From Cyanophora paradoxa CCMP329 (Eukaryota > Plantae > Glaucophyta), in assembly GCA_004431415.1 (NCBI GenBank), contig QPMI01000619.1, positions 1-64,000 on the forward strand: a stretch of DNA of 64,000 bases. Direction: 5' to 3'. A program made the position numbers and the translations under genes. Below, one piece after another: positions 1 through 45,079 of the stretch. The notes below the pieces were generated by a model. That model did no database searches. It was given only the letters and a program-made list of their open reading frames with translations, and had not been told where the DNA came from. How positions within the stretch are numbered: position 1 is the stretch's first letter; the number at the start of each line of letters is the position of its first letter.

Positions 1-2
1 CC

Positions 3-316
3 TCGGGATTTGCGCTCTCAATGCGTAAATCGAGTTTTGCGCCGACGGAATGCGAACAAAGAAGACCGTAGCCGAGCGCCAGGCACGAAAGAGCTGAGCG
101 ACTCGCTAGCCGCGGAGCGGCGCGAGGCGAGCACGGGATAAGCAGCAGGCTGCAGCGAGCGTCCCGCAAGGGACTAGCTGAGCTAGCCGTTGGGCCGAGC
201 CGGCGGCTTGAAGCCGCCGAGCTCCGGGGGGTACGCTGATTCGGGGTTCCCTTCACGCCCAGCTTCGCTCGCGGCCGCTCCAGGCCACGAAGCGACCAGC
301 GGCGAAGCGAAATCGC
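3..316 (+). repeat. Split direct repeat A1 (left terminus)
   Basis: Matches 10211-10526 apart from homopolymer-length differences. Confidence 0.95.
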
Positions 317-2650: not shown

Positions 2651-2699
2651 GCCAGCCAGCGCTGACGCCCCGCCCCGCGGCTGCGCCGCGGCAGCGCCG

Positions 2700-3880: not shown

Positions 3881-3999
3881 GCCTTGGGGTCTCGCGGAGA
3901 CGCACTTCCATCTCGGGGCGATCGAGGAGGCCTGGAACTCCCCGGGCAGGAAGGGCCGTAGCCTCTACGCTCGGCCCGCCCGCGGGTCAACTCGGCTGC

Positions 4000-6289: not shown

Positions 6290-6375
6290 CCCGCCCGCCC
6301 CTCCGTCCGCGGCTCCCCCGTCGATCCCCGCGTCGCCCCCAGCCGCTCCCGGGCCTGCGAGCCCGTTCCCCCGTC

Positions 6376-9424: not shown

Positions 9425-9657
9425 CCCGGCGTTGTAGCGTGTAAAAATGCATTCACGGTTAGCCGTACTGGCAATCGAGAATGACACGCGAGGGCCCGCG
9501 CGGTGCGCGGGCGGGGAAGGATAGGGAGCGGGGGATGCGGAGCCGGAGGGGAAGGGGGGCTCATAAAGGGCCCCGCTCTTTTCCCCCCCGGCCGCTCCAG
9601 CGTTTTATGCTTGGTGCAATGTATGCTATTCTGGCTGGCTGTGACCTGACTCTTGTT

Positions 9658-10210
9658 TGGTAGGGGGTACTGCATTCGTGCTGCGTTCGCTACGCTCACC
9701 CCCGCGGCCTCCGGCGGCGGTACCCGGCTTCGGATCCCCGAACCCGGAAGAAACCGCGTACCCCTCCCCGGGGTACGCTGTTCGCCCCAACCGGCCCACA
9801 AGGCGCGGCCCGAGGCCGAACGCGTACCCGGAGAGGGTACGGCGTCAGAGCGGCCCCGATCAAGTGTACCCCGAGCGGGGTACCCGATCGGCCCCGCGAC
9901 GGCCCCGAGAGGAGTACCCCGAGCGGGGTACACCGTCTCGACCCGCAACGGCCCTCCCCGGGGTACAGGCGCCTAGCGCGCTTACCCCGGAGAGTTCTTG
10001 TTCCGGAACTCGCAAGGGCGAGGCCGGAATGGCATACGGCGATCCGCCCTGGTCGATCGCCAACGTATTATGATACGTGGTTCCCGGGAAAGCAGCCTTG
10101 AGCTGCCGTACCTCAGGGCCCAACCTGATGCGCTATCCCGTGCATCTAGCTAAGTAGTGCCAGGCGTAAGATAGCTAGGTCTTCTGCATTCGAATGAAGC
10201 GAGGCGTAAA
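9658..10210 (+). repeat. Split direct repeat B1
   Basis: Near-identical to 11176-11726 (homopolymer indels only). Confidence 0.95.
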
Positions 10211-10526
10211 TCGGGATTTGCGCTCTCAATGCGTAAATCGAGTTTTGCGCCGACGGAATGCGAACAAAGAAGACCGTAGCCGAGCGCCAGGCACGAAAGA
10301 GCTGAGCGACTCGCTAGCCGCGGAGCGGCGCGAGGCGAGCACGGGATAAGCAGCAGGCTGCAGCGAGCGTCCCGCAAGGGACTAGCTGAGCTAGCCGTTG
10401 GGCCGAGCCGGCGGGCTTGAAGCCGCCGAGCTCCGGGGGGTACGCTGATTCGGGGTTTCCCTTCACGCCCAGCTTCGCTCGCGGCCGCTCCAGGCCACGA
10501 AGCGACCAGCGGCGAAGCGAAATCGC
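10211..10526 (+). repeat. Split direct repeat A2
   Basis: Copy of 3-316 directly abutting B1. Confidence 0.95.
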
Positions 10527-11175
10527 TCCCGCCCACCTCCCGCGATTTTTCCTTCCGGGGCGCCGAACCTCGCCACCCAGCGAGCCCCGGCGCCTCGAAA
10601 AGTTCGCGCAAAAAAGGCAATGCATACGGCGACCAGCGCCAGCGTTCGCCGAGGGTATTATAATACGTGGTTCCTTGTCGTCTCCTGTGCACACGGTTCC
10701 GGATGTTACTCCCGCTCGGTGCCGGCCACCAGCGCGGACGTGGTCGTGCACAGCTGATCCGTGGTAATTTACAATAGTCCCGTCGAAGATTCGGGCACGA
10801 ACCGCGCAGACTCGGTGTACCGGTCGTCATTCGTTTTCCACGCGCGTCCGCTGGACCCACTTGTGCCGGGCCGGGGTCCAGCGCGCCCCCAAGAAACAGT
10901 CGCGCGGCTTCGTGGAGAATCTCGGGTTTCACCGCTGGGTTTTACCCTGTTTTTCCTCTGGACCCGCGGGTGCCGAGCCGGGGTCCAGCGCGCATGACCG
11001 TTACGCGGTTTTTCCCGCGGTAACTTGCTGGGTTTTCGAGTCTGCCGCCCCGGCGCGGGGGGAGACTTCGCGCATGTTTCGGAGTCCTGTTGGTTTTTGA
11101 TGAGCCTCGGTTGTCGTATGTCGTACGACCCCTTGGTCTCATGGTCGTCTGCGGACGACGGACACGCTATGCGCG

Positions 11176-11729
11176 TGGTAGGGGGTACTGCATTCGTGCT
11201 GCGTTCGCTACGCTCACCCCCGCGGCCTCCGGCGGCGGTACCCGGCTTCGGATCCCCGAACCCGGAAGAAACCGCGTACCCCTCCCGGGGTACGCTGTTC
11301 GCCCCAACCGGCCCCACAAGGCGCGGCCCGAGGCCGAACGCGTACCCGGAGAGGGGTACGGCGTCAGAGCGGCCCGATCAAGTGTACCCCGAGCGGGTAC
11401 CCGATCGGCCCGCGACGGCCCCGAGAGGAGTACCCCGAGCGGGGTACACCGTCTCGACCCGCAACGGCCCTCCCCGGGGTACAGGCGCCTAGCGCGCTTA
11501 CCCCGGAGAGTTCTTGTTCCGGAACTCGCAAGGGCGAGGCCGGAATGGCATACGGCGATCCGCCCTGGTCGATCGCCAACGTATTATGATACGTGGTTCC
11601 CGGGAAAGCAGCCTTGAGCTGCCGTACCTCAGGGCCCAACCTGATGCGCTATCCCGTGCATCTAGCTAAGTAGTGCCAGGCGTAAGATAGCTAGGTCTTC
11701 TGCATTCGAATGAAGCGAGGCGTAAATCG
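11176..11729 (+). repeat. Split direct repeat B2 (right terminus)
   Basis: Copy of B1, ending GAGGCGTAAATCG. Confidence 0.95.
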
Positions 11730-17635: not shown

Positions 17636-17697
17636 ATGGGATGCGCCCAATCGATTCCCATGGCCAAGCTTCAGGCTCCTGCAACGAACAAGCTGCA
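17636..17697 (+). CDS. Probable first coding exon of the NACHT-TPR gene (MGCAQSIPMAKLQAPATNKL-), separated from the rest by the LTR element
   Basis: accATGG context and an MGCxxS acylation-type N-terminus. The frame is open up to the TSD and continues CTG CAG after the 3' TSD. Confidence 0.65.
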
Positions 17698-17953
17698 TGT
17701 CGCATGCCGCGATGCCCTCGGACTAGGTTAGCTGGTAGTCTATGGTTAGCCTCTAGCCTTAGTCTAGCGCTAGTAAGCTTCTAGCTTGTAGCGCTCTCTG
17801 TGTTGTGACTTAGCGCCGGGCGCGGCCCCATCTGAGGGGTACGCCGTCCCTGTACGGGTACACTTGTGAATAGACCACTTGTGCTTCCTGCTATCACCAC
17901 CGCCTGCGCTAGACCGCGCAGGGCGTACCGGGTGGGCTTCTTCCCATCCGACA
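17698..17953 (+). repeat. 5' LTR
   Basis: TG...CA ends with 5-bp inverted termini; copy at 35499-35754. Confidence 0.97.
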
Positions 17954-18389
17954 GGCGCCACGTGCCTACGGAGCACGAACCAGCGATCTTCAGCGACCGT
18001 CCTCAGCAACCAGCCCAACCCAGCACCCGCAGCTCAGCCGGCGCACGGGAGAACCTCGAAAGAGGTCGAGGAGCGTGCGGACGCTCCCCGCCCGTGCCCG
18101 CAAAGGCTGAGCGAGCAGGTTGACGAACTGGGGCGTGCTGCTCTCGCAAACTGAGCGCAAACACGATCCGGGGGCGTCCCGGTTTCGTGCGACGTGAGCT
18201 TGCTCACCTCGGCTGCCAGAGGCACCGAGCGAAACGACCGGAGTCGAAAAGGCTTGCGAAACGGGACCCTCGCGGTCGCCGCGTAGCTCGCCGCCCAGAG
18301 AGCAGAGCTCGCGAAACAGGACCCTGAGTGGTCGCTGCGTAGCTTGCCTGACTCCGCGGGTTCCACGGAGTTCGGACGACCTCAGCGAC

Positions 18390-21300
18390 TTGGCTTCGAG
18401 AAGCCTCGTCACGCGACCGCGGACCTCGAAGGCGCCGAGCGCGCACATTCCGATCGATAAGCTTGGCTTTACGCCGCAAGCTTTTCGTGAAAGAATGTCC
18501 TCCGGAACCGGGGCTTCCGCGGAGTATCACATTCGAATGGCGAACCTGGCACCCTTCACAGCAGAACCGAGCACGCTGAGCGGCATTCCGACGAATGCGC
18601 TCGAGATGCTGCGCCGGATTCCGCTGCTACAGCCAGGCGCCGACCGCCAGATGGCCGAGGACCATCTCGCTGCCTTCGAGGCTGCCGCCGCGCTTAGCCG
18701 GAACATCCTGAATCTGGCTGAAGACGCCGGCGACAGCCAGCAGCAGAACACGGGCCTCGCGCTCATCCAAACTTTAGATCCGGCGCACAGCGTGCGGAGC
18801 GAGATCGAACTCTTTCACGCCGGCCAACGCGCGCGTAAGAGCGAGCTCGTGAAGCTGCGGAGCGAAAGGGACGAAAAGGAACGCGAGGGCTTCGCCAGCG
18901 AGCATGAGCGTTTGCTTTTCGAGGGGCTCGGCGAGCAGATCGCGGAAATCGAAGAGGCCATCGCTGCGTCTAAGCGCGAGACCACCTTCGCCGCGATCCG
19001 CGCGCGCCTGGAGTCTGATTCCGGCGACCGGAACCCGGACGACCTCAAGGAGGTCCTGCGCCTTCCCTACCTAGGCGAGAACCCGGAGGCTTGCGTCCGC
19101 CGCACCTGCCGCCTGTGCATGCACCCGGACGCACGCCGGCCCCTGGAGACCTCGCTTACGGCGCTAGTCCGCCAGCTCAAAGACATGATCACACGCCGAA
19201 ACCGCGGCGAGTTCCGCGAGTTCGATGACGTGAAAGATCTGTCAGAGCGCGACCGGCGCCGCATGCTCAAGAACCTCGAGATTCTGACCGTGATTCAGGC
19301 CGAGCTTGCTCAGCGCGTGCGCGAGGGCACGCTGAAGGACGAGGTCGGCCTCGTCAACTACGTGCGCCAGCGCTGCCGTGAGCTCGGCGCCTGGGACACG
19401 GATATCTCGAACGTTCCGGGCTCCGCGTACGTCGTCAAGCGAAGCGCCCTGCCGAGCGCGGTTCCGGCCCGCGCCCCGAGCGTGGCCCAGTCCCTGCAGC
19501 GCGCCGTCGCAGCCGCCGCTCCGCCGGCCGTCCCCATCGTCCCGTCGGGCGCCCACGGGTCCAAGGACTCGAGCGCGCGCGCGATGCGGGCCCACACGCA
19601 CTGCGAATGCTGCACGCACGAGCACGACGAGGACTCCGCGCACGACGCGCAGACGGAAGAGCTAGTGATGTTCTGCCGGTACGCGTTCGCGGGCGATGAC
19701 GAGGAGGTCGACGTTGTGATCCGCGCGATCTTCCCGTCCCCCTCTGCGCCGCCGCCGCGCCCGGACGATCCGGTCTACCGCCAGAAGATCACTGAATTCC
19801 TGCGCGAGCGAGGTCTGCCGGCTCAGCCGCGCAACCCGTGCCACTGCGGCAAGCGCCACTGGAAATTCGAGTGTGACGTTAGCCCGACGCCGCTGCCTGA
19901 CTGGTCGGTGATGAGCCCCAACAAGCGCCGCGCCGGCAATTTCGGAAGCGAGGGCAAGCGCCGCCCCCCCACGGGCGGGCGCTCCAGCCCCGCCCCGCCG
20001 TCCGGCAACGGGCCGCCGGTCTGCTACGGGTGCGGAAAGCCGGGACACCGCCAAGCGAACTGCCCGGCGATCGATACCAAGATCTCGACCGAAGTCGGGG
20101 TCGCGGTCCGCCGCGCGTTTGCGGAGCACAAGGAGTCCCTCGCTTCGACAGCAGCGAACGAGAACGCGACCTACGCGATCGCCCGCGCCCTGCTCACAGT
20201 CGCCCCGGGGCTCCTCGGGACCTCGCCGGTGTCGTCCTCGGTCCCAGGCTCGAGCACCGCGGCCGGGTCGGGCCCTGCGCCGGCGGAACCGGGCAAAGAG
20301 CGCCGCGTGCTCCGCGTGAAAATTGATCGCACAACTCCCAACCTCGACCTCGTGAACGCTTTCATGCGCTTCCGCGAGTCCACGGCCGAGCACGCCGCGG
20401 GCCTGCAGAAGGACGGGAGCCTGAGCACCTGCGCCGACGCCGCGGCTGCATTCGCCATCGCGCTTGTGCAGACAATCGGATCCGCAAGGCCAGACCTCTT
20501 CGCCGAGGAGGCGCCCGTGCATGACATGCGGCCGCCCCTCCCGGAGTCGGGTCTAGCTGCGACGGAGAAGAGCGCGGCCGGCGTTGTTCCGGGCCCTGCC
20601 GCCGCCTTGAGCTCGTTTGCTGACATCATGAACGCCGCCGACATGGGCACCATCGCTCTCTCGTCTGCGGCCGCCCCGGACCCAACGGAGGTTGAGGGCG
20701 CTGACACAGAAGTGAAGGGTTCTGATGTAGCTGCCTCCACGAGCTCGGTCAGCGCGGACGCAGGCACCGCACCCGACGCGCCCGCGGTCGAGATCGCTGC
20801 GAAGGCCGCCGATCCCGCCGCTGGCGTCGGCCCGTGCCTGGAGTACTCTTCGGGCGCAGAGACCGTTGCGAGCCTCTCGGTCACTGACGACGGCGCCTCG
20901 GTAGTCGATGAGGACCCCGAGGCGGCGGCCAAGGAGTGCCTCCGTGCCAACCGCTCCCTCCTCGAGCGCGCTGGGCTCACGGTCGCGCACTTCGGCGCCC
21001 TCGCCCTTTCGGAGGAGCCGGGCCGCGAGAATGAGCTAGGCCCAGCCGTTCTCTGGGACGTGCAGGGGCACAAGCTGAAGGGCGCCGCTCCCGTCGAGTT
21101 CGAGCGAGCGGGCTTCGTTTACCCGAACCCCCGCCTGAGCCACTGCGTGACGCACTGCTTGGAAGGCTTGGTCGAGCTGCCTGAGGTGCAGTGGTACGCT
21201 ACGGCGTTCCGCTGCCCGGGGCGCACCCGCCAGACCTTCTCCTTCTTGCTTTCGGCGCTCACACAGCCGTTCGCGGACGCCAGTGTTTACACTGACTCCC

Positions 21301-24300
21301 TGACCCTGCCGACGGCTTTCTTGCACATGCTGGGCCACGACAGCACCACGCGTGACCTGCTGGCCCATGCCTGGCCGACGCGCTATCTGAGCACGATGCA
21401 CCTAGTGCGCCAGGTCGGCCTAGCCGCCCAGTTTGCTGCGAGGGGGAAGTCGTGGCCCACGAAGGGCCTGACCGCCTTTGGCAAGCCGGAGGTGGAGCCG
21501 GACCTGCAGCTGCGCCGGCTGAAACCGGGCGAGATCGCGATCGCGGGATGGCTCGAGCCCTTCCGCGGGCACAGCAGCATCGGCCTGCAGTCCCCGATCG
21601 CCCAGGCGCTCGCGCAGCACGAAATGCAGCTGGCAGGGACGGCGCGCTCGGTCAGGGGCCGGCTGGTGTCCGACGAGACCCGCCTGCGGCTGGCCTCCGC
21701 GGCCAGCGTCGCCGCCTACTACCTCCACCGCCTCGACTACGGAGCCCCCGGCTCCTCCCAGGCCGCCGAGGCCATCCTCCAGCGGTACTTCAGCTACGCG
21801 GCCCCGTTGATGGTCGACGAGTACGCCGACGCCTACGGGCTCGCTCTCGTCCTCCTGGAAAGCTGGGCGCGCTGGAAGACTGCAGGGAGCTTCGGGGGTC
21901 ACACGGGCCGCGTCGACCTGCACAAGGCAGTCGCTCTGCTCCCCTGCGAAACCTCGTTCGCTCCCACGGACTTCGAGTTCACGACGGCAGTGTATTTGCT
22001 CACGACTGCGTCTCTCGCCCTCGAGCTGCCGCTGCCGTCGGCGAAGGCGCTGTACTCGCCGAAGGACGCTGAGGCCTGGCTGGCCTACGCCGCCCGCGAG
22101 CGCCACGAGGCGTACCGCAAGGGGCGCGCCCCGGACTACAGCCGGCTTGACAGCGCGTGTACGGTAGAGCGGGTGCCGGTCGACGGGGGCCTTGCTGCCG
22201 ACCGCGTCCTGATGCTCCGCGACCTGCCGTTGTACACCGCCTGGCTCCACTCTCTGCCCGGCCACCGTGTCCCGGCCGGCTCGCCGCAGAGCCCGAATCC
22301 GAAGGCGCCGGCCCCTACGGGGTGGCACCTGGGCCTGGTCAGGCCAGTCACTAGGGGCACGCAGCTTCCGCTGCACTCCGAGAAGGGGTCTGGCCGCCAG
22401 CCTACTATCATTCCGGAAGAAGTCTCGATCCTGAGCCCGCTCGGACCCACCGAGCCTCTGGAAACCTTGACGAATCTTGCTCGCGCTAAGACGGTGGCGG
22501 GGAGCGCCGGCGGCGCCCGCCTCATCAAGTACATCGAGAGCGCCCCGCCCCACCCCTCGCGCGCCCACCTTATCCTCCTGTACCGCCGCCTCAAGCGGAA
22601 GGGTAGCGGCCTGAGCGACGAGGAAGTGGACCAGCTCATCGCGTTCACTGAGAAGTGGCGCGTGGACCCGGGCTGCCCCACAACGACTCCGATCGCCTCG
22701 AAGCCTGACCGCGAGTCGCGGACGCGCGCCCCCGACGATCAGACCACGGTGAAGGCGATCGGGGCTACGCTGCGGGCTGCAGCAGCGCTCGTGCCGCCCA
22801 CTGCAGCGCCGGAGCCCGACATCCTACCCGATGGCCGCCTCTCGCCTCCGCGGGCACCGCCCGCGTCGTCGCCGCCGCTGGGCTCGCCCACCGACGGAAA
22901 GCCGCGTCAGTCCGCAGCGGGCGGCGCAAAGGGACGCGGAGGCGGCAGGCGGGGCCAGGGTGAGTCCCGAAGCCGCAAGGAGGCTCCTCAGAAGGACAAA
23001 GAGGGGGATGTCCCCATGTCTGATCAGCGGGAAGGGGGCGGAAACGGAGGTGAGGGCCCTAGCGAGCCCCCACCGGCGCCCGAACCCGAGCCCGTCCCAG
23101 TGCTCGACGCCGACGACCCGGCCCAGAACGCCCTGTACGAGGCGCTGGGAGTCATCAACGGCATCCTCTCTGTGCCCAAGATCGCACCCTCGAACCAGGG
23201 CAAGCCTCTCGCCAACTGGCCGCAAGGCGCGCGTAAGACCCTGGCGGGCCGTTGGCAAATCTCGGTCTCTGACGTCAAGGGGACGCTGGAGACGCTGCGG
23301 GCCCCGCACCTGCGAGACTTCATAGTCTCCGAGAGCAACGCCCCGCTGCACGAGCGTGCCGACAACCCCATGCCAATCGTGACGCCACATGTGGGGCGGC
23401 CGGCGCGCCGTGCCCCCCGCGCGATCCGAGTCGCGCGGGAAAACGCAGCAGCCCTCGAGCTGCTGATGCACGGGCTAGGCTTGGTCTCTGAGATCACCCC
23501 CCTCCATGGGGCTCTGCCTGCGTCGCTGCACGATTGGACCGAAGAAGACATTGAATGGTACTTGACGACGCGCTGGCGCATCCCAAAGCCGCGAACCCCG
23601 GTGTGGGTCCATGAGGACCGCTTCAACCCGAATGCGGTCGCCATCCCGCCGAGCGTCACGCGCTACCTGCTGCAGATGCACGCGCACCTCCTCGCCGAGG
23701 AGCACAACGCCGACGTCCCGTCCGCGAGCCGCCTAGCGGAGGAATTGCCGCCGGGACTGAAGTGGGCGAGGAAGTACTTGCGTTTCGCCACGCGGCACGA
23801 CCTTGCCGACTCCTCGGGGGACGAGAGGCGGCCAGGGGACGCGCGATGGGTTGCGCAGCGCGATGCGATTCTCAAAGCGCTCCGACGCCCGAAAGCGTAC
23901 GAGATAGACGAGGCGCGGCTCGGCGGCGCTGACGCCGACGAACCCGAGCCCTGCTTAACACCTCTGTACGTCGACGTTGGCGAGGGAGAGGAGCCCCGTG
24001 AAGACGCGGGCGCCGAAGCCGAAGCCTCCCAGCAGCAGGCGGGCGGAGCCTTCGTGCCACACGCACGTTGGAAGCCTCGCCCCCTGTTCACGCTGGCGGA
24101 TAAGAGTTACCTGAATGACATCACCCTGCTTGAGCAGTACTTGTCGGACAAAGGCCCGTTCTTCCGCCCTCTCAGCTGCTTCGACAGCGCCATGATCGAC
24201 TGGGCCTCCGTGCCCGCGATTAGCTATCCCTTGCGGTGGCGCTCTGAGGCTGAGACGGATGAGGCGCCTGAAGACGCAGCCCGCAGTCTCGACACGCACC

Positions 24301-27300
24301 TGGGGGAGATGTCCTCCACACTCCTGAAACGCGTGGGAAGCGCGGCCCGGGGCATGACAAACTTCTTCTCGCTCGTTGGGCCGCCGATGCTCCCGCACGC
24401 CACCAGCAAGCTCTCCGAGATGCAGGGCCTTGCCTTTGGACACGTGATCTGTGGCGTCGACCCGGACGTGGCCCAGTACTTGGCGCTTGGCACGCGCTCA
24501 GCGCAGACAGCCGCGCCCTCGTACCTCGGCCCCTGGGACGTCACTCACGAGGGCACGGCGCACGCGGCCCTCACCTCGGCCCTGGCCCAGACGTCCCGAG
24601 TGCTGTACACGATCTTCTTTGCAGGCGACCCTGGCGACGGGCCAATCCCTTACCTGCAAGATGACGAGGCGCCGTCCCCGCACACGGCGGCCCTCAACAA
24701 CAATATCGCCGACGTGCAAGTCGAGAGCGCGGCGTCGCCGTTTGGCACCCGCTATGCGCGTGACACTGCGATCCTCGATCTGCACCGTCCGATCTACTCA
24801 AAGAAAACAGTCCGGAGTGGTGACAAAGGGGACCGCTTCGAGGTGCAGCGCACATACGCGCCTCGCCTCGTCGCGAGTACCGCCGTCCTGGGCAAAACGC
24901 ATGACGCCGAGGCGAAGGCCGCGGCAACGCGCCAGATGGGCAACGGGGCGCTGTGGCTGAGCTCGACTATGGAGAAGCTCGCCCGCGCACCGAAGCGTTG
25001 CAAGGCCCACCCGCCGTTGGTCAACGCCTTCGGCTACGAGCTGTCGCGCCCGGCGACCGCGACCACGGCTGCAATTACGTGGGCGCCCATTCCCGCGGAG
25101 GAAGATCTAGCGTGCACGATTGCCGGTTTTGTGACCGCATGGCAGCACCGCTTCTTCCAGGCGTACGCGCCGGGGAAGGCCCTGGGCAGCCAGCAGTGGT
25201 CCGAAGACTTCTCCGTCACACCGATGGCCATTGACACGGGCGACGGGTCCGAGCACGAGCGCATTGCGAACGTAGTCTCCCTTGAGGAGGACACCAATTC
25301 AATTTTGAACTCGTTCCGATGCGTCATCCCGGACGGACTCGTCCAGTTCCTGCACAATACATTCCTCGCGAAGCCGACCTCGAAGCCGGATCGCGGCACG
25401 GAAGCGAGCCATCCCCGCGATGCGCGACCGACGTACGCCGACGGCCGCCCGACGCTGGCTTGGAAGTTCGAACAGGGCAAAGTCGTGCCGGACTATGAAG
25501 GCCGGCTGGCAATCTGCTCTCGAATTCTCCTCGCGGTCCTTCAGGGCCACCAGCACTCGGGGATTCCGCTCCTGCCGCGCCGCAAGGACGGCCGCGCGCC
25601 GCTGAACGCCGCCGCGAGCGACGCACTGTGCGAGGCCCTCCAGTACCACATGCGGCAGGTGCACGACAGCACCGCTGATGAGGGCATCGTCGTCAAAACG
25701 CTCCGCGACTATCTGGATAAGATGCCGCAGGGGCTCGGGCTCCAGCGCCTCGAGCTTGCCTCCCCGCCTATGGCCGGCGAGGCTGAATACTGGCCCGCGG
25801 CCAAGGTCGGGGACGGTTGGAAGCCGGTGGTGCTGGACCGGAGCGAGGCCGCACGTGCAGTGGAAGAGCTGTTCCACAAGCCCGGGAACTTCCCCCGCGG
25901 CATCGTGTTCACTGACTCGGCCTTCGGTGCCCGCCAGAACCTGGAGCGAGTGCTGCGCACTCTCTACTCCGACCTCTCGTACGTGATCACACGCGACGGT
26001 AGGCCGGACTGGGAGAAGTTCGAGCCGAAGCTCCCGGACTGGGACGACAGTGCCCTGCTGCCGGCCTATATGTGGGACTCGGTGACGACCTCGAGGTCCG
26101 CCCCAGTGTTGAAGCTGCGAGGCCGAAAAGACACCTCGGAAGCCACCTTAGTCCGTACGCCGTACCAGCCGATCTACGACGCCGACGTCCGCAGCTCTTG
26201 GGCAGGCGTCTCCTTTGTCCCGCCGCCAGACATGGTGGACGACTCAGGGAAGACGCCGACCGAGGGTGCGGAAGCCTCCTCCTCGAGCGCGGCGCTCACC
26301 TCGAACGTCTCGGCGCCGCCCGCTCCCTCTCCCGGACAGCCGCCTCACGCGGTTCCCCGCGGCGGCCGCGTAGGCCGTGGCGGACGGGGTGGCAGTCACC
26401 CCCGGGGTCGTGGAGGCGCCGGTGACTGGCGAGGCGGCCGTGGAGGCGGTGGACGAGGGCGCGGTGGCCGTCACAGCGGCGCAGGTTCCGAGGCTGGCCG
26501 TCAGGGGCAGCCCGGCGAAGCCGCGCCGCCTGTGCAGCAGCAACAGCGCACTCGCTCACCGCCGCGCGAGAGCGCCTCGTCCATGGCCCCACCGCCGACT
26601 CGGCGGACCCCAGACCGGCCCAAGGTGTCGGACGACCGGCCGCCGAGCTCGTCCTCCTCTCGCCACTCGCCGCGCCCGAGCTCGAGTCAGAACTACCCGC
26701 CGCCGCCGCCCCGCGACCGGGACCGGGAGCCCTCTCGGGCCCCGTCCAAGCGCCGCTCGCGCTCCCCGGCCCGCGACTCCAGAGCCGCGTCCAAGTTCTC
26801 CAGGCGGAGCCGGAGCCGGTCCCGCGATCGCGGTGGCTACCGCGACGACCGCCGTAGCGCGTACCGGTCGCCGGACCGCCGCCGGAGCCGCAGTCGTGAC
26901 CGCCGGAGCCCGCGTGACCGTCGCAGGAGCCGGAGCCGCAGCCGCTCTCGCTCTCGTGGGCGGGATCGCCGCAGCCCACGCAAGAGCTCTCGGGATCGCC
27001 GCAGCCGCACGCGCTCGCGCTCGAGGTCTCGCGATCGCCGCCGCGACAGCCGTCGAAGCCCAAAGCAGGCGAAGAGGGCCCCTGCTCGCCCCCCGACCCC
27101 GCCCCGAGGAGCGGAAGAGGCCGGGTATGACGAGCATGCCGCCGACGCCGCGCGCCGTTACCAGAACCCGACTGCCCGTGAAGCGTACACCGCGCTGTGG
27201 GAGAAAACGTACGCAGAGGCGACCCACCAGCCGACCGCAGCCAAGCGCGCGCAGTTTACCACAGACACGCTGCGCGCCTCGCTGCTCCGCCAGCTGGACC

Positions 27301-29543
27301 AGGCCGTTTCGCGCTCCTCGTACGGGGGCCAGACCGCCGCCACCTATGCGATGCCGCCTGCGTGGGGCTGGACGGCGACGTCGGCCACGCCCGCACAGCA
27401 GGGCTTGCTGGGGTCCGCGCCGCCGAGTCACTCCGGGCAGTTGTCCCACGACGAGCGAGTCGAGCTCGAGCGCCTGCGCGCTGCCGAGAAGGGCAAGCAG
27501 CCCTTTCTGAGCGGGCCTGGGGGGCAGCGTGAGCAGGGCGTATCGTCGCCTGCCGCTGCGGAGGGTCGCGCCTCCTCCTCCCAGGCCAGTCAGCCTCCGC
27601 CGACTGCCAAGAAAACGTCGCGCCCCTCCGCGGCGTCCTCCTCCTTCAATCCGACGGCCGACATCGCGGGCATGGGCGTTCTCGCCTTCGCCCAAGAATG
27701 CGCCGCGTGCCGTGACTCGAGCTTGCGCGAGGCTGGAATCCAGAATCTACGGACCTGGATTCAGACAACCGACCGCCGCGTCGCCAACGCGCACGACTTG
27801 CACCGCAAGCTGAAGGGCGGCGACAAAACCCACCAAGACAGGTGGCCAGAAGCGCACAAAAAGTGCTGCCAGATGCTCGATCTCTTGAGCAAGGCCCTGA
27901 AGCAAGAACGCACCTTGGAGATCGCGCTCCCCGAGAGCACTATCGCCTCCCTGGTTGCGACACTGCCGACGGGTCCTCGTAACGAACTCGAGTCGCTCGG
28001 GCGCACCCTCGAAAATACTCGCGAGTTCCGCACCCAGCTCGAGCGTGAGCGGCAGCGCGAAAACCGCGAAGCCCAGGCTCGTGGTGAGCACGAAGTCCGT
28101 GCAAGGATGCTGCGCAAGGCAGAGGACACCGCGGGGCCCGCCCTTGCGGCGCGCGCCCACGGAGACCTGCCTCCGCACCTGCACCCCCCTTCGACTGCCC
28201 CCGCCCTGAGCACCGCCGCGGTGGAAGAATGCACCGCCCCGCCCTACATCAATGTCCAGCGGCCTGTCCTCCTCGTTGGGCGCCCGGTCGCCCATGCGGC
28301 CCCTGCACCGCGACCGGAAGCGTCGACGCCCGCACCTGCAGCTGCGAACGCGCCGGAGCACGAGCAACCTGCTTCGGCGGCGGCCCCGCGTGAGCAGGCG
28401 CCGGCCTGGGCACGCCGCCTCCTCCACCGGCTCGGTCCCCGCTCCACGGTCACAGTCTTTAACTGGCTCGCAAACCCGGCACTCCTGCTGACGGTCAAAC
28501 CGTCTGAGCTGTCGCCGGCACTCCGCGAGGCTCACCAGTCGATCATGGCCCGCTACGGGATCAAGCTGCGGAAGGAGGGCTACAAAGCTCCACCCCGCCT
28601 CGCCCGCGAGTGGTTCTCGGGGTCAACGCCCACGGCGGCCTTCGCCCCGCGGACCGCTCTGGAGGCCGAGGCTCTCATCTACCCTGAGGGCGTCAGCTCC
28701 GACGAGGAAGCGATGGTTCCAGTGGGCCACGCGCTCAGCGCGAAAAACCGCCCCACTGCAGCCTTTCCCCGTCCGGCTGAAGACACTCCGCTGGGGACGC
28801 GCGCTGGCTACGACCCGCCCGCTGACGAGCTGATCTACGCCAACCGGCACGGCCCGAGTCGGCGTAAACGCTCGCGCCCATCCCCCGCCGAGGAGCAGGC
28901 TGAACAGCAGCGGATTGCGCGCCGCGCCGCCGCCCGCAACTCACGCCCTGCCTCGCCGGCCTCGGAGCACGACAGCCCCGCCCTTGCCGGCCCTCCCACT
29001 CCGCCGGAACCCGAGTACTACGTCCGCAAGGCTCGCACCGGCTGGCCTCGCGACAAAACGCTCGAGTTCTTCCGGCCGAAGACCTTGCAAATCCCAGGCA
29101 GCATCGCAATGAGACTCCCGAACGGACGCTCTGGCGCCGAAAGGCCGGTCCGCATCGTTGTTGACACGGGCGCCCAAGGCACCGTCGTCCCTCAGGAGAT
29201 CCTTGACCTTCTGCCGCCCGAAGAAGTCAATTACGTCGAGGGCCACACCGTTGTACGTGGCTTCATGGACCGCGACAAAATCCGTTGCCGTCGCGCCGAC
29301 GTAGTTTTCATCCTCGGGACGCTCCGTTTCTGTCGCCGCGTCTTTGTCGTCCCTCGTGGCGTCATGGGCGCCGAGCCGGACATTCTCCTCGGTCTGGACG
29401 CGATCCAGGCCATCCACGGCCAGATCGACACGACCTTGTCGGGCTGGTGCCTTCGGGCACGCGATAGCCACTACCGCGAGGTCGTCGTCCCTTTTCGGCT
29501 CCGGACCAGCTTGGGATCCTGGTCCGGGTGCTCGGGCCTGTAA
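18390..29543 (+). CDS. Giant Gag-(unknown cargo)-protease polyprotein, 3717 aa (first in-frame ATGs at 18495 and 18537)
   Basis: Uninterrupted 11.1-kb ORF. Capsid-like N-terminus, Zn knuckles CHCGKRHWKFEC (19839) and CYGCGKPGHRQANC (20022), RGG and RS tracts (26360-27060), retropepsin IVVDTGAQ (29163)...DILLGLD. Confidence 0.93.
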   Translation: MASRSLVTRPRTSKAPSAHIPIDKLGFTPQAFRERMSSGTGASAEYHIRMANLAPFTAEPSTLSGIPTNALEMLRRIPLLQPGADRQMAEDHLAAFEAAAALSRNILNLAEDAGDSQQQNTGLALIQTLDPAHSVRSEIELFHAGQRARKSELVKLRSERDEKEREGFASEHERLLFEGLGEQIAEIEEAIAASKRETTFAAIRARLESDSGDRNPDDLKEVLRLPYLGENPEACVRRTCRLCMHPDARRPLETSLTALVRQLKDMITRRNRGEFREFDDVKDLSERDRRRMLKNLEILTVIQAELAQRVREGTLKDEVGLVNYVRQRCRELGAWDTDISNVPGSAYVVKRSALPSAVPARAPSVAQSLQRAVAAAAPPAVPIVPSGAHGSKDSSARAMRAHTHCECCTHEHDEDSAHDAQTEELVMFCRYAFAGDDEEVDVVIRAIFPSPSAPPPRPDDPVYRQKITEFLRERGLPAQPRNPCHCGKRHWKFECDVSPTPLPDWSVMSPNKRRAGNFGSEGKRRPPTGGRSSPAPPSGNGPPVCYGCGKPGHRQANCPAIDTKISTEVGVAVRRAFAEHKESLASTAANENATYAIARALLTVAPGLLGTSPVSSSVPGSSTAAGSGPAPAEPGKERRVLRVKIDRTTPNLDLVNAFMRFRESTAEHAAGLQKDGSLSTCADAAAAFAIALVQTIGSARPDLFAEEAPVHDMRPPLPESGLAATEKSAAGVVPGPAAALSSFADIMNAADMGTIALSSAAAPDPTEVEGADTEVKGSDVAASTSSVSADAGTAPDAPAVEIAAKAADPAAGVGPCLEYSSGAETVASLSVTDDGASVVDEDPEAAAKECLRANRSLLERAGLTVAHFGALALSEEPGRENELGPAVLWDVQGHKLKGAAPVEFERAGFVYPNPRLSHCVTHCLEGLVELPEVQWYATAFRCPGRTRQTFSFLLSALTQPFADASVYTDSLTLPTAFLHMLGHDSTTRDLLAHAWPTRYLSTMHLVRQVGLAAQFAARGKSWPTKGLTAFGKPEVEPDLQLRRLKPGEIAIAGWLEPFRGHSSIGLQSPIAQALAQHEMQLAGTARSVRGRLVSDETRLRLASAASVAAYYLHRLDYGAPGSSQAAEAILQRYFSYAAPLMVDEYADAYGLALVLLESWARWKTAGSFGGHTGRVDLHKAVALLPCETSFAPTDFEFTTAVYLLTTASLALELPLPSAKALYSPKDAEAWLAYAARERHEAYRKGRAPDYSRLDSACTVERVPVDGGLAADRVLMLRDLPLYTAWLHSLPGHRVPAGSPQSPNPKAPAPTGWHLGLVRPVTRGTQLPLHSEKGSGRQPTIIPEEVSILSPLGPTEPLETLTNLARAKTVAGSAGGARLIKYIESAPPHPSRAHLILLYRRLKRKGSGLSDEEVDQLIAFTEKWRVDPGCPTTTPIASKPDRESRTRAPDDQTTVKAIGATLRAAAALVPPTAAPEPDILPDGRLSPPRAPPASSPPLGSPTDGKPRQSAAGGAKGRGGGRRGQGESRSRKEAPQKDKEGDVPMSDQREGGGNGGEGPSEPPPAPEPEPVPVLDADDPAQNALYEALGVINGILSVPKIAPSNQGKPLANWPQGARKTLAGRWQISVSDVKGTLETLRAPHLRDFIVSESNAPLHERADNPMPIVTPHVGRPARRAPRAIRVARENAAALELLMHGLGLVSEITPLHGALPASLHDWTEEDIEWYLTTRWRIPKPRTPVWVHEDRFNPNAVAIPPSVTRYLLQMHAHLLAEEHNADVPSASRLAEELPPGLKWARKYLRFATRHDLADSSGDERRPGDARWVAQRDAILKALRRPKAYEIDEARLGGADADEPEPCLTPLYVDVGEGEEPREDAGAEAEASQQQAGGAFVPHARWKPRPLFTLADKSYLNDITLLEQYLSDKGPFFRPLSCFDSAMIDWASVPAISYPLRWRSEAETDEAPEDAARSLDTHLGEMSSTLLKRVGSAARGMTNFFSLVGPPMLPHATSKLSEMQGLAFGHVICGVDPDVAQYLALGTRSAQTAAPSYLGPWDVTHEGTAHAALTSALAQTSRVLYTIFFAGDPGDGPIPYLQDDEAPSPHTAALNNNIADVQVESAASPFGTRYARDTAILDLHRPIYSKKTVRSGDKGDRFEVQRTYAPRLVASTAVLGKTHDAEAKAAATRQMGNGALWLSSTMEKLARAPKRCKAHPPLVNAFGYELSRPATATTAAITWAPIPAEEDLACTIAGFVTAWQHRFFQAYAPGKALGSQQWSEDFSVTPMAIDTGDGSEHERIANVVSLEEDTNSILNSFRCVIPDGLVQFLHNTFLAKPTSKPDRGTEASHPRDARPTYADGRPTLAWKFEQGKVVPDYEGRLAICSRILLAVLQGHQHSGIPLLPRRKDGRAPLNAAASDALCEALQYHMRQVHDSTADEGIVVKTLRDYLDKMPQGLGLQRLELASPPMAGEAEYWPAAKVGDGWKPVVLDRSEAARAVEELFHKPGNFPRGIVFTDSAFGARQNLERVLRTLYSDLSYVITRDGRPDWEKFEPKLPDWDDSALLPAYMWDSVTTSRSAPVLKLRGRKDTSEATLVRTPYQPIYDADVRSSWAGVSFVPPPDMVDDSGKTPTEGAEASSSSAALTSNVSAPPAPSPGQPPHAVPRGGRVGRGGRGGSHPRGRGGAGDWRGGRGGGGRGRGGRHSGAGSEAGRQGQPGEAAPPVQQQQRTRSPPRESASSMAPPPTRRTPDRPKVSDDRPPSSSSSRHSPRPSSSQNYPPPPPRDRDREPSRAPSKRRSRSPARDSRAASKFSRRSRSRSRDRGGYRDDRRSAYRSPDRRRSRSRDRRSPRDRRRSRSRSRSRSRGRDRRSPRKSSRDRRSRTRSRSRSRDRRRDSRRSPKQAKRAPARPPTPPRGAEEAGYDEHAADAARRYQNPTAREAYTALWEKTYAEATHQPTAAKRAQFTTDTLRASLLRQLDQAVSRSSYGGQTAATYAMPPAWGWTATSATPAQQGLLGSAPPSHSGQLSHDERVELERLRAAEKGKQPFLSGPGGQREQGVSSPAAAEGRASSSQASQPPPTAKKTSRPSAASSSFNPTADIAGMGVLAFAQECAACRDSSLREAGIQNLRTWIQTTDRRVANAHDLHRKLKGGDKTHQDRWPEAHKKCCQMLDLLSKALKQERTLEIALPESTIASLVATLPTGPRNELESLGRTLENTREFRTQLERERQRENREAQARGEHEVRARMLRKAEDTAGPALAARAHGDLPPHLHPPSTAPALSTAAVEECTAPPYINVQRPVLLVGRPVAHAAPAPRPEASTPAPAAANAPEHEQPASAAAPREQAPAWARRLLHRLGPRSTVTVFNWLANPALLLTVKPSELSPALREAHQSIMARYGIKLRKEGYKAPPRLAREWFSGSTPTAAFAPRTALEAEALIYPEGVSSDEEAMVPVGHALSAKNRPTAAFPRPAEDTPLGTRAGYDPPADELIYANRHGPSRRKRSRPSPAEEQAEQQRIARRAAARNSRPASPASEHDSPALAGPPTPPEPEYYVRKARTGWPRDKTLEFFRPKTLQIPGSIAMRLPNGRSGAERPVRIVVDTGAQGTVVPQEILDLLPPEEVNYVEGHTVVRGFMDRDKIRCRRADVVFILGTLRFCRRVFVVPRGVMGAEPDILLGLDAIQAIHGQIDTTLSGWCLRARDSHYREVVVPFRLRTSLGSWSGCSGL
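29489..29527 (+). promoter_or_regulatory. Putative programmed -1 ribosomal frameshift signal
   Basis: In-frame C CCT TTT heptamer (29489-29495), 5-nt spacer, perfect 9-bp stem CCGGACCAG/CTGGTCCGG. The -1 frame is the open pol frame. Confidence 0.75.
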
Positions 29544-32500
29544 AGCTCCCCGTCGGAGAGGCCCTCGTCCCATGTACGCTCAATGGGCAGGGCCCGGCAA
29601 CGCGTGAGTTGCCGCACCTCTACGTCGAGCCGTCACCGGAGTCGCCTCAAGCGTTAGGCGTACTCTGCCCCTTCCAGCTGCACAATCACCCGGGAAACAA
29701 GATGTTTCACGTGCGGCTGTGTAATCCTGGTCGCCAGCCCGTCACCCTCCCGCTAGGTTCGGTAGTAGCAGTCGCTGAGGCTGTCGCACTGCCGCCTGGT
29801 GATTTTCTGTATGAATCTGAGCGGATCCCTGATAGCCCTAAAGAATTGACAGAGCTCTTAATTCGCCGCCTGCGAATCGTGCCCGCCAAGCGACGCACGG
29901 GGCTCCGCCACTTCAACAGAAAAGCACGCATGCTAGGCGCAGCTTACGAGCCCGCCAAAGATGTCGAGAAAATCATTGCCTCACTGCGAGCAGTGGTGAC
30001 AGCGGCTGAAGAGGCGCGCAAAGTGCAAACAGCTGCACCCGCCCCTGATCCACCCCACCCGTCCCGTCCCCCACTATACGATGCCAACGACATAGTCGTC
30101 GCCTTCGGCGAAATGCCGTTCGACGACGACGACCGGCCGTGGCGGGATACAGACGCGATGAGTCTGATTAGCTTCGATGACGCTACCGATCTCGACGATG
30201 CGTCTCAACGAAGCGAATCTCCTACCCCAGCCCCCATCTCGGGACCGACGGCTGCCGAGTTTGCCGACGCAATTGAGGCTGTGGAGGTGCCCGTGGGCGC
30301 GACGCTCCGCGGAACCTTCCCCAAGCTCACAGAAGCGGGGGAAGCCGCCATCCTGCATTCCGTCCGCTCCCTCAGCGTGGGCATGACAGTCCGCAAAGCT
30401 GCCCCGGACGCCCCGGCCCCGCCGTTGGCACCGGCCCAGCCGTCGCTCTCGGTTGTCACAGCCTCTCTCGCCGATCGCACGGCCACGCCTTCCGAACAGC
30501 CTGCAGAGCCGGCACCGGGGACGGTGCCTAATGCAGAGGAGGAGTGGCAGGAGCTGTTGAAGAAAATTCCTGAGCTCGGCTCTCACCCGTCTATCACGAC
30601 GGAACAGAAGGCCGAACTCCATGCGCTTCTTAGGCGCTACAAGGACGTCTTTGCAGACAAAGTCGAGGCAAAAGAGGGCACTAGCAACTTGCTCTATTAC
30701 GAGCACGTGATCCGGCTCACGAGCCGGCTCCCTGTGTTCACGCCTCCGCGGCGCATGAATCCACACGCTGAAGAGCATGCTCGCAAAGAAATTCAGAAGC
30801 TCCTCGAGCTGGGTCTGATCGAGCCCTCGCAAGCTGCGTACGGATCGCCAGTGGTGCTCGCTCCAAAGAAGGACGGCACCTGGCGCTTCTGCGTAGATTA
30901 CAGGCGGCTGAATCAGATCACTGAACGCGACGTGTTTCCGCTGCCCCGCATCGACGACCAGCTCGAGCGCCTGCGCGGCTCGATGGTCTTCTCAACAGCG
31001 GATGCCACGGCTGGCTTCTGGCAGCTTCCTCTACACCCCGGCTCGCGCGCGTACACTGCGTTCGTCGTACCCTGGGGTCATTTCCAGTGGCGCGTGACCC
31101 CGTTCGGTGTGACCAATGGCCCCGCGGCCTTCTCCCGCGCGATCACCGCGATCTTAGGCCCTCTCTTAACGACCTGTGTCGTGGCCTATATCGATGATAT
31201 CACGGTGTTCTCCCCGTCAATCGATCAGCACCTCTTGGACTTAAAGGCGCTTTTCGAGACGATCTCCAAGGCGAACTTGCGCCTGAAGCCGTCGAAGTGC
31301 CGCTTTTGCGTGCCAGAAATCGACCTTCTAGGCCACCGCATCTCCGCCGAAGGGATCCGGCAGGACCCGCGAAGACCAAGGTGATCTCGGACTGGCAGAC
31401 GCCTAAGAATGCGGACGAGCTCCGCTCGTTCTTGGGCCTCGCCGGTTACTACCGCCGCTTTGTAGAGAACTTCTCCAAGGTGGTGTACGCCATGCAGCGC
31501 CTTCTATTGAAGGACGCCGTCTGGAGTTGGCCCGAGGGCGGTGCCGCCGACCGCGCCTTTAAGGAGCTGAAAGAACTGCTGGGCCGCGATATTATATTGC
31601 GGTTCCCGGACTTCTCTAAGCCCTTCATACTCCAGACGGACGCCAGTACATACGCTATCGGCGCGATTCTGAGTCAGACGGACAAGGACGGCGTTGAGCG
31701 CCCCCTTGCCTTCATCAGCCGCACGTTGTTGCCGGCTGAAATGAACTACTCCGCCACGGAATTGGAATGCCTCGCAGTAGTTTGGGCCATCAAGTATTGG
31801 CGCCACTATCTGCTGGGCGGGCCCCAGTTCCTGGTCCGAACAGACCACCACGCCCTCCAGTGGCTGAAAAGCCTGGACCCGACAACAGGTCGGCTCGGCC
31901 GTTGGTCTAGATCTCTGCTCTTGCAGGCCTACGACTTCGAGATCGTCTACCGCCCGGGCAAGCAGAACGGCGGCCCTGACGCGTGCTCACGCCTTCCAAA
32001 GGACCACCCCGTCTGGCAGCCCGGCGGAGCCGATGGCTCTTCCTCGACGCCAGCGGCCTACGAGGGAGCCGAAGGCTTCGGCGTCCCCCAGCGCGCTGTG
32101 GGCGCCGAGCCCGAGGATCCTGACGTCCCCCTCGGCATCTTCCGCGTACAACTGGGCCCCACTGAGCGGGCTCTGCGGAAGCTTGCCGACTCCGCCGGCT
32201 TCCAAGGCGCGGCACCTGCAAACCTCGGCCGCTCGAGCCGGCGGCGAAGCCGCCCGCCCACCGACGGGCCGAGCCCGGCAGCCGCGCCCGAGGAGACGGC
32301 GGGCCGCTCCCCTTATGCAGAGGAGGAGTCGCGGCCCCCCGAGCCAGCTCCAGCCTCGGCCCGCACCCGCCGGGTGCCGCGCGAGCTTGCCAAGCTCGCC
32401 GCTTCCGCGGGCTACGCAGGAGCCAAGGCGTCTGCTGCCGCCAGCGACGACGAGTCGAGAAAGAGGACGAGAACCGCCCCGGAGCGCTTCGCGCCCCAGG

Positions 32501-34863
32501 CGCCAGGGTCTCCGTCCCCACCGCCTGCCAAGCGAGACCGCCGCCCGGCGGCCGGCTCCCGCGATCCCGACGCTAGCTCGGACTCCGATTCGCCCATGCC
32601 GGACGCCCTTGCCGACGGCGATGACGGAGTGCCCCCTTCGCTACTAGAGAACGCGCACGCCGAGGCGGCCGCCGCCGAGTCCGAGTCGGAAGGCTCGTCC
32701 GAGGCCGACCCGGACGTCGCGTGCGACGCCGATGGGTTTCCGCTAGCCTTGCTCGAGAAACTGCCGACGCGTGCCGGGACGGGCCCGCGCCGGTGGGATC
32801 GCAAGGGCTTCGCCGAGCCTCGCCCTGCTCACCCCTCTGGGATCCTTCCCCGTGGCCCGGCCATGAGACGCCAGCCGCGAGACGAGCACAACACGAGGCA
32901 TTGGCGTAGCCCGGCCGACCAGAGCGAGGTGCCGGAGCCGATCCACTTGGATTGGGAGCCGGAGCCCGTCGAGAGGGAGCCGCCCCCGGGACCGTCCCGT
33001 CGGCGTTCGCTGTCTCCCGAGACGGCGCGGAATCAGATGCGGGTGCAACCTACCGCGCCCGACGCCCCGAAGCCGCTGCATCGCCGCGGAGGCCGTTCAC
33101 GGCCGAGCCCTCAGGCTCCAGATTCCGAAGTGGTGTCCGCGGAGACGCTGGCCCCGCGGCGGTGGGTCGAGCTCGACCCCAGAGGTCGGGAAGTCCGCCC
33201 GCCATGCAAGCCGGTCTTTGTGGACACTGTCCTCGACGCCTGGGCCTGCGGGCCTTCGCCTGCAATTGATGGCGCACTCCCGGACTCGCTGCGACGCATG
33301 TTTCCGCTCGAGAGACGGGAACGCCTGCTCGCCGCACAGAAGGAAGACCCCCTCTGTAAGAAGCTTATGGGCTACTATGAGAAGGGTGAAAATCCGACTC
33401 GGTGCTCACGTGGCTTCAAACGAGGGGCAGACCCCTGCTCTTCCTCGTGCGCGCACTGCCTGCGGGCCAAGGAGCGGTTCGTGAGGCTGGCCGACGACTT
33501 CAGCCTCGCTGAAGACGGCGTCATCGAGCGCAACCCGCTAGTGCCTGCCGGCCGGTTCCTGCCCGTACTGCCTGACGCTTGGATCGACCGAGTTCTGTAC
33601 GCCTATCACGAGGGCTGGGCCCACCGCGGAGCCCACGTGATCGCGCGTCGTATTGCTCAGCGATTCTGGTGGCCTGGCATGTACGCTTCGATCGCGCGCT
33701 TCGTGCGGTCCTGCCCCCATTGTCAGTTTGCGAAGGCAGTGAAGCCCCGCCGTACCGCTATCCAAGTGATACAGCCCTCGGGCCGAGGCGACCTGTGGCA
33801 GGTGGATATTTTCCACTTGGATATGCATGAAGACGGACTGCGGTACATTATCGCGTACGTCGACGCGTATACCAAGTTCTGCTATATCTATCCGCTAGCC
33901 CGCGTCTCTGGCGAGGCTTTACTGGCCACCGCGATCGATTTCTACATGCATGAAGGCGTCCCTGCGCGCATCCTCACGGACCGCGGTTCCCAGCTGGTGG
34001 GGGGCCTGTGGAACGAGTTCTTCAAAGAGAAGGGCACGCGCTTCGTGCATGCTGCTGCCTACCACCACGCTACCAACGGTGGCGCCGAGCGCCTCGGTGG
34101 CGTTTACAAAACACTCGCCTACGCGATGTGCCGCGAGCACAAGAGGCCTCTCTCTGACTGGCCCATGTACAATGCGGACATCGTCCTGGCCCTGCGAACG
34201 ACCGTGCACTCCGCCACCGGCTTCTCGCCCATGGTCTTGCACCGTGGCGTGGATGTGCACCTTCCCTGCGAAGTGCGCTTCGGCGCGGGCGTTCGCTTCT
34301 CGAACCCCGACCACACGCATCCAGCCGACTACCTCCTCGCTATGACGAAGGCCGCGGCTAGCACCGATGCTGCCTCGCGCGAGTATCGCCGGTTCTATCG
34401 GAGCCGTATGGTAGCTCGCACAGGCAACCCGCCGCATCGCCGTCGCTTCCAGGTGGGCGACAAGGTCTTGTGCTGGATGGGTGACCATGATAAAGGCCTG
34501 TACAATTCGTGGGTCGGTCCCTACACGGTTACCGGCGTTAACCCTGGCGGTTACACCTACACGGTGAAAGGATCGGCTAAACCTTATTCGGCCTTGAGTG
34601 ACACCCGGGTCCGCCCTCTGCGCGAGACCGTGGCTCACATCGACTGCATGCTTCCTTTCCGGCCACGGCTCTCTGAGTCTCAAGCTCGCCCACGCTTGGG
34701 TCGGCCACGGAAGCCGGACGTGGATACGGTGGACCCCATCGACCCCTCTTCGGACTCTACGCAACCTGACCAAAACACAAATATTGTCCCTGATGTCGGC
34801 GCCGAGGGCCCCGTTGGGGCGGCCGAGGGCGACACCGATGTGATCTTGGTGGAAGAATTGTGA
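29495..34863 (+). CDS. Pol: RT - RNase H - low-complexity linker - integrase (1-nt frameshift near 31370)
   Basis: [46 protein letters not shown]. HHCC (H...H...CPHC), D-D-E (QVDIF, TDRGSQ, GAER), GDKVL...WVGPY. Confidence 0.95.
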
Positions 34864-35484
34864 GGGCAGATTTCTTTGCCAGCTTTGCCTCAACCTTGGC
34901 TCTCTCAAGGGACGTCGGCCGATCACACTTGTGCTGTCTTGTCGGGCAAAGTGTGGGTTGGTGGCGGTTTGCACCTTGAAGACTTTCGTTCCCTTTTCTG
35001 GAGTATGGGCCCCAGAGCTCAGAGGAGTGGTAGAGTGTGAGCTTTGCTTGCGCGCGTGCGGCCCAAGAAAGGCGTACGGCCGGCGGTCCACTCTATCGTG
35101 CCCTGCTCTTTCGTTGGGCCTGATGGGTGGCCCGGATACCTCCTCGTGTTTTCTTCCGAGGCGGTGAAACTTCCCATCCGTGCCCCTCTCCTGCGGTGCT
35201 CGCCGTACGGAGCGAGTTTTGGGCCAGTCACGGGTTTCAGCCACTATGCTTTTCTGCACTTTCGAGCTTTGCCAGGGGTTGCTTAGGTACATGCATACCT
35301 GGTATCGGATCCTACTACCTCTACCCTTATTATCTACCCCGACTTCGTCGACTTGGTGCTGCTGGTTGCTGATGATGACCTATCTACCTCGAGTGGAGCT
35401 CCTGCTCCGTCGCCGCCGCGATTTGGGAGACCCGCTGCGCGTGCAGACGAGCTTGGCGCGGTCCGATGCGCGGACGCATCGTAT

Positions 35485-35498
35485 GCAGAGTGAGGAGT
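35485..35498 (+). other. Probable polypurine tract
   Basis: GCAGAGTGAGGAGT immediately before the 3' LTR. Confidence 0.55.
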
Positions 35499-35754
35499 TG
35501 TCGCATGCCGCGATGCCCTCGGACTAGGTTAGCTGGTAGTCTATGGTTAGCCTCTAGCCTTAGTCTAGCGCTAGTAAGCTTCTAGCTTGTAGCGCTCTCT
35601 GTGTTGTGACTTAGCGCCGGGCGCGGCCCCATCTGAGGGGTACGCCGTCCCTGTACGGGTACACTTGTGAATAGACCACTTGTGCTTCCTGCTATCACCA
35701 CCGCCTGCGCTAGACCGCGCAGGGCGTACCGGGTGGGCTTCTTCCCATCCGACA
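35499..35754 (+). repeat. 3' LTR
   Basis: Identical to 17698-17953. Confidence 0.97.

Positions 35755-45079
<9,325 letters not shown>

Follow-up and report, generated by a model that had tools for sequence, protein, structure and literature searches.

A Ty3/gypsy retrotransposon of Cyanophora paradoxa with about 3,000 in-frame residues between nucleocapsid and protease

Features of the element and its neighbourhood

The window, meaning the whole stretch of 64,000 nucleotides that was analysed, comes from the glaucophyte alga Cyanophora paradoxa and contains a Ty3/gypsy retrotransposon with a total length of 18,057 bp. Its features are listed below by window coordinates, with the strand in brackets.

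17693-17697 (+): 5' target-site duplication CTGCA
17698-17953 (+): 5' long terminal repeat (LTR), 256 bp, TG..CA, same sequence as the 3' LTR
17954-17970 (+): putative primer-binding site abutting the LTR, assigned by position only
18495-29543 (+): ORF1, Gag-cargo-protease, 3,682 aa counted from the first ATG
18495-19427 (+): capsid-like region, named by position; conserved, constrained, without family match
19839-20063 (+): nucleocapsid with two zinc knuckles, the first atypical and the second canonical
20865-22697 (+): cargo block A, ~610 aa, with a C-terminal predicted four-helix bundle
23112-23987 (+): cargo block B, ~290 aa
24075-26237 (+): cargo block C, ~720 aa
26265-27047 (+): tract of RGG and RS dipeptides
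27060-28697 (+): conserved smaller blocks D1 (27060-27377), D2 (27660-28067) and D3 (28395-28697)
29115-29510 (+): aspartic protease, DTGA at 29163, C-terminal end of ORF1
29489-29532 (+): predicted signal for -1 frameshifting; slippery heptamer at 29489-29495, hairpin at 29497-29532
29496-31365 (+): Pol part 1 in the -1 frame, with a possible degenerate dUTPase-like stretch, a spacer and reverse transcriptase (RT)
31366-34863 (+): Pol part 2, past a one-base break, with RNase H, a long low-complexity spacer and integrase
35482-35498 (+): purine-rich tract upstream of the 3' LTR
35499-35754 (+): 3' LTR
35755-35759 (+): 3' target-site duplication CTGCA

The LTRs are identical at 256 of 256 positions (17698-17953 and 35499-35754), start with TG and end with CA, and the duplication CTGCA is found on both sides, as the first-pass annotation had described. 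The same annotation reported a stop-free ORF of 3717 aa; its openness is confirmed, the frame 18198-29543 comprising 3,781 codons without a stop, while its start is not, since position 18390 is a TTG and the first ATG, at 18495, gives 3,682 aa. The N-terminus set by this ATG is the same as in the homologous gene models P0004, P0005, P0009, P0024, P0052 and P0053. The remaining five frames carry 24-86 stops each, and no open run among 200 shuffles exceeds 541 codons, so that openness of ORF1 by chance is excluded.

The N-terminal part was called capsid-like; this holds for its position, conservation and constraint and not for a family assignment, as no match at a useful level was obtained in Pfam, PDB, NCBIfam or PHROG. 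The nucleocapsid has a first zinc knuckle of the type CxCx3Hx4C, starting at 19839, and a second, canonical CCHC knuckle, starting at 20022 and ending at 20063, and in relatives zf-CCHC scores above the Pfam cut-off. The large distance noticed earlier between the last knuckle and the protease is real and amounts to ~3,015 aa. The protease reaches a Pfam E-value of 0.017, below the cut-off, and aligns to that of a relative with an E-value of 6.6e-6.

Protease, RT, RNase H and integrase follow one another as in Ty3/gypsy elements and, among solved structures, the RT is best matched by Ty3 RT (E-value 7.7e-49, the next other entry being at 5.3e-33 and the following at 5e-19). Over 395 aa of the Pol frames the C. 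paradoxa gene model P0025 is 100% identical, and over 457 aa it is 99.8% identical. The stretch after the protease is, in our view, similar to a degenerate dUTPase, and searches with it gave no database match. The spacer between RNase H and integrase (32200-33300) is low-complexity, several hundred residues long and 38-58% identical among relatives. A GRPRK motif, which we take to be AT-hook-like, is located at 34700-34735, past the integrase core, where chromoviruses have their chromodomain; assignment to the chromoviruses was rejected, as no chromo hit was found at E-values up to 1 and the integrase is followed by a short low-complexity tail only.

The overlap of 76 nt between ORF1 and Pol contains one of the three in-phase slippery heptamers of ORF1, with the hairpin next to it. 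A gene model of the distant subfamily (subfamily C) has 15 consecutive third-frame residues in common across the overlap; compared with shuffled sequences, the hairpin region is not of greater stability (z -1.32; 22/200). The Pol reading is also interrupted by a one-base break at about 31365-31368 of the window sequence. Short-read contigs came from four runs (X1, X14, X18 and X19), two of them marked as possible DNA sources and two not. In X1 and X14 the contigs with an extra base at the break hold all the depth (335.7 + 915.1 of 1,250.8; 951.6 + 2,564.4 of 3,516), in X18 and X19 the single covering contig also has the extra base, and related gene models read through this position uninterrupted. 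The break is likely an assembly error, and the recent activity proposed for the element therefore stands, with the identical LTRs as its basis.

The window also includes a second RT-bearing element at 1-11708, with RVT_1 within 6040-7698 and split direct repeats (3-323 / 10211-10533 and 9658-10192 / 11176-11708); the layout resembles that of PAT/Ngaro-type tyrosine-recombinase elements, and no recombinase was hit in the frames scanned. A tandem array of ~146-nt units lies just 3' of the gypsy element (36857-37573), and a host gene at 41100-44900 has ~13 TPR-like repeats whose spacing of 190-220 nt suggests one short intron per repeat.

Conservation and identity of the cargo

The three globular-looking blocks noticed in the first reading are real, with limits slightly wider than those given there, and are separated by P/A/S linkers that look protease-sensitive. 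The RGG/RS tract, the blocks D1-D3 ahead of the protease, the -1 frameshift signal and the break in pol had been missed. The tract counts 43 RS/SR and 8 RGG in 270 aa in the window element and 32 and 4, respectively, in 340 aa in the relative P0052, and its composition is thus maintained between the two. For the end of block A a four-helix bundle is predicted with pLDDT of about 75-83. Internal repeats are absent from the cargo and no CpG depletion was seen.

All 30 bins of the element are covered in all four runs, and some contigs, for example 22118-25771 and 27498-29030, show zero differences. Among the contig pieces listed none spans the element, and the junctions 20692-21305, 25771-26157 and 29030-29605 have no bridging piece. 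Depth over the cargo is approximately that of the flank and contigs of related Pol reach many times this depth, where depth is not to be read as copy number. Three subfamilies can be distinguished, namely that of the window, one ~72% identical and one 45-52% identical, and in both of the others gene models carry the cargo blocks in the same order together with the RGG/RS tract. Of the window ORF1, residues 100-3244 are collinear with the single model P0052, 100-2420 with P0024 and 2625-3498 with P0019; moreover, the consecutive models P0013, P0014 and P0026 on one contig correspond to block B, block C and protease-RT. No gene model of a relative has D3 and protease in one frame. The insert is consequently present in diverged copies with its blocks in the same order, and the suspicion of a chimeric assembly is largely refuted by the short-read contigs and these independent copies. 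Some annotated C. paradoxa genes are fragments of this element.

Between the window element and P0052 identity is 41% in the capsid-like region (126/307), 52% in block A (294/563), 46% in B (122/266) and 51% in C (359/699). Pol linkers are 35-63% identical, so raw identity alone proves little, and the RT and RNase H (window 29115-31990) are 96-98% identical to the distant subfamily, which suggests that either the cargo (46-52%) evolves fast or Pol was exchanged recently. As the gene models of the relatives contain false introns, constraint was compared on aligned columns only. Retention of hydrophobic residues is 0.80 in the capsid-like region, 0.80 in A, 0.74 in B and 0.79 in C against 0.59-0.67 in neutral simulations, and the observed retention was reached in 0, 0, 1 and 0 of 300 simulations, respectively. 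D2 also passes (2/300); for the ORF1 linkers, the post-knuckle region and blocks D1 and D3 this test shows no departure from neutrality. The linker ahead of the RT passed as well (4/300), which marks the test as imperfect, and a substitution-score statistic was discounted since it fired on several linkers too. Alignment gaps per 100 aa are 1.5-2.2 in blocks A-C and 4-7 in most ORF1 linkers, and in the distant subfamily tryptophans are kept at 0.75-1.00 against a neutral 0.40-0.51. Of the coding differences listed in the short-read contigs 25/29 are silent, and only one falls within the cargo. At the level of sequence, these comparisons demonstrate a real, in-frame cargo that diverged copies share and in which blocks A, B, C and D2 are structurally constrained.

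A profile of blocks B and C compared with 1.84 billion proteins gave 16 hits, all of which look like pieces of this element family; the source was traced for 11 of them, and all 11 are C. paradoxa models. No homologue outside C. paradoxa emerged from the protein searches, in which B and C were covered more deeply than A: the word-index searches, which scored the best 1,937 and 7,995 candidates, failed to return some known relatives, hence the shallower coverage of block A. Cargo pieces found nothing credible in Pfam, NCBIfam, PHROGs or PDB sequences, BIR, MATH, ankyrin, BCL2 and SUMO-like domains had no Pfam hit in the window ORF1 or in eight relatives covering it, and related loci were present neither in viral contigs (searched with B and C) nor in metagenome contigs (searched with A). 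The ESM Atlas returned unnamed clusters for block C at 0.92 with low recognition (1209) and nothing for block A. AlphaFold2 models built from 6-row alignments have a mean pLDDT of 42 for A and 30 for B and C, and with these poor models Foldseek found no match at E-values up to 0.001 in PDB (A only) and BFVD (A as well as B and C); the VIA search with the poor model of block A reached a best Z of 6.1, to generic helical bundles. The structural check proposed earlier has thus given, with poor models, no match to any well-described family, and blank fold searches of this quality are no evidence of new folds. The end of block A is, to our eye, TFIIS-N-like, B SAP/SAM-like, and C contains an HExxxH; we regard these as resemblances only, and none had a database match. 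The roles proposed for A-C are deduced from context, neither a function-bearing motif nor a family or fold having been found.

A more distant C. paradoxa gypsy family, represented by P0058 (RT ~62%), has some 900 residues and no knuckle ahead of its protease, and the family profile (1,666 positions, a part of ORF1) did not match them. Residues 1-480 of P0039, like residues 1-900 of P0058, are possibly a different cargo.

Expression of the first frame and possible roles of the cargo

The reading preferred here, to which we assign a probability of roughly 0.55, is that the first frame encodes a polyprotein that would be cut by its own protease into capsid, nucleocapsid and accessory proteins at Gag-level abundance. 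Most ribosomes would terminate at 29543, behind the protease, with a minority slipping by -1 at 29489-29495 to produce a Gag-Pol of ~5,450 aa. The Gag stoichiometry suggested in the first-pass annotation gains support from the likely position of this shift: being 3' of the protease, it predicts that cargo and protease would both be made at Gag level. A Gag of 400 kDa would hardly fit a normal particle, which makes early cutting by the protease likely. The RGG/RS part would serve to bind the long element RNA and condense it, and blocks A-C would have an intracellular role, most likely in countering host silencing or in the handling of RNA. C. paradoxa methylates its repeats, as reported in PMC12344493. 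More tentatively, the Gag-protease of glaucophyte gypsy elements may be a modular cassette for expression, comparable to the polyprotein of an RNA virus, in which A, B and C would represent new counter-silencing families and cargo would be swapped on a shared Pol; this reading, which we consider possible rather than probable, derives from the difference between RT (96-98%) and Gag and cargo (41-52%) and from the 900 unrelated residues of P0058.

The cargo could be selected and nevertheless not be released as abundant free proteins, either because it stays on Gag, within an oversized particle or a body of RNA and protein, or because a spliced short Gag is made, with the long form as a rare product. 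In some LTR elements Gag levels are governed by splicing, host genes are intron-rich, as seen in the TPR gene of the window, and cleavage sites in ORF1 were not identified, all of which speaks for this explanation; protease and Pol, however, are reachable only through or around the cargo, and the linkers between the blocks look protease-sensitive, so that we hold it to be a less probable though serious competitor. An unlikely view is that the cargo is filler whose frame is open only since protease and Pol lie downstream. Identity comparable to that of the Pol linkers and the lack of family or fold matches would agree with it, but filler accounts poorly for the scarcity of gaps in A-C, for a hydrophobic retention like that of the capsid-like region, for the preserved tryptophans and for 9 kb of dead weight kept in three subfamilies.

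Capture of one or more host genes in frame, followed by divergence, is about as improbable as filler: LTR elements are known to take up host and viral ORFs (PMC6431247) and the RS/RGG tract has a composition like splicing-factor tails, yet all 16 hits of blocks B and C resemble element pieces and no stand-alone donor gene was seen. The planarian element Burro has Env homology between Gag and protease (PMC6431247), and an Env-like entry protein in the cargo would make the present element infectious. This is very unlikely, given that the maximum 19-residue hydropathy of ORF1 is 1.55, with no transmembrane-like stretch, and that cysteines are few (7 in A, 1 in B, 7 in C); the cargo has three N-glycosylation sequons, and no viral match was obtained, with poor models. 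Least credible of all is a chimera or mis-assembly as the origin of the long ORF, for which the unspanned element, its three unbridged junctions among the listed pieces and at least one likely base error, in RT, may be cited, and which is opposed by the complete coverage of bins in every run, the long zero-difference contigs and the independent copies with the same order, including the three consecutive models. The cleaved polyprotein with accessory proteins at Gag level is therefore retained as the working interpretation, and the element offers a test case for the expression of accessory proteins by LTR elements and for the maximum size of a Gag.

Relation to known elements

In the RT phylogeny proposed as a check, the 13 C. 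paradoxa RTs among 27 rows form one clade (100/100); outgroups were the returns of one search at E-values up to 1e-60, without labelled reference clades, and the tree leaves out P0025, P0035 and P0037. Of the possibly undescribed giant lineage proposed initially, the separate RT clade is upheld among the sequences retrieved, and the unprecedented layout is not, in view of Burro/GYPSM1. No description of the family was found in the open literature searched. The C. paradoxa genome paper gives LTRs as 1.77%, and the word gypsy is absent from its main text (PMC6704402); the portions of text available from PMC12477816, PMC6338049 and PMC5009743 hold nothing like a giant-Gag cargo.

The element resembles Ty3 in its LTRs, the 5-bp duplication, the order of protease, RT, RNase H and integrase and the RT match. 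Ty3 has a short Gag and its protease is in Pol, beyond a +1 shift; here, in contrast, the protease closes a first frame of 3,682 aa. Avian leukosis/sarcoma retroviruses make their protease at Gag level and have a -1 frameshift after it; they belong to an unrelated lineage, without large cargo and with env. Their frameshift is treated in PMC5009743. With Ogre/Tat the element shares its classification as a large gypsy element with extra coding sequence; Ogre owes its size to LTRs of 1.9-6.5 kb and one or two separate ORFs, the extra coding sequence being of unassigned function (PMC6431247). Membership in Ogre/Tat was rejected, as the LTRs measure 256 bp and the extra sequence is in frame inside Gag, not in separate ORFs.

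The closest counterpart in layout is Burro/GYPSM1 of planarians, an element of >30 kb with thousands of copies and polyproteins of 4,873 and 5,140 aa, in which thousands of in-frame residues extend from the Gag knuckles to the protease (PMC6431247). Its ORF1 of 4,873 aa is described as Gag, many recognisable domains, Env homology and protease, with AIR1, Smc, MATH, BIR, ankyrin, BCL2, SUMO-like and Env as cargo (PMC6431247). Both have a knuckled Gag, thousands of in-frame residues and a protease, and the Gag-Pol predicted here is of ~5,450 aa. The C. paradoxa element differs in its size (18 kb), in a cargo without recognisable domains and in a likely -1 frameshift after the protease, the enzymes of Burro being described within ORF1 (PMC6431247). 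The giant-Gag layout is thus already known, while the cargo and the family are apparently undescribed. The element is a second metavirus, apparently independent and in a lineage distant from planarians, in which ~3,000 residues separate nucleocapsid and protease. Its cargo provides ~1,600 residues of orphan sequence, constrained and globular-looking, in an alga that can be cultured; unlike the cargo of Burro, this one matches nothing searched.
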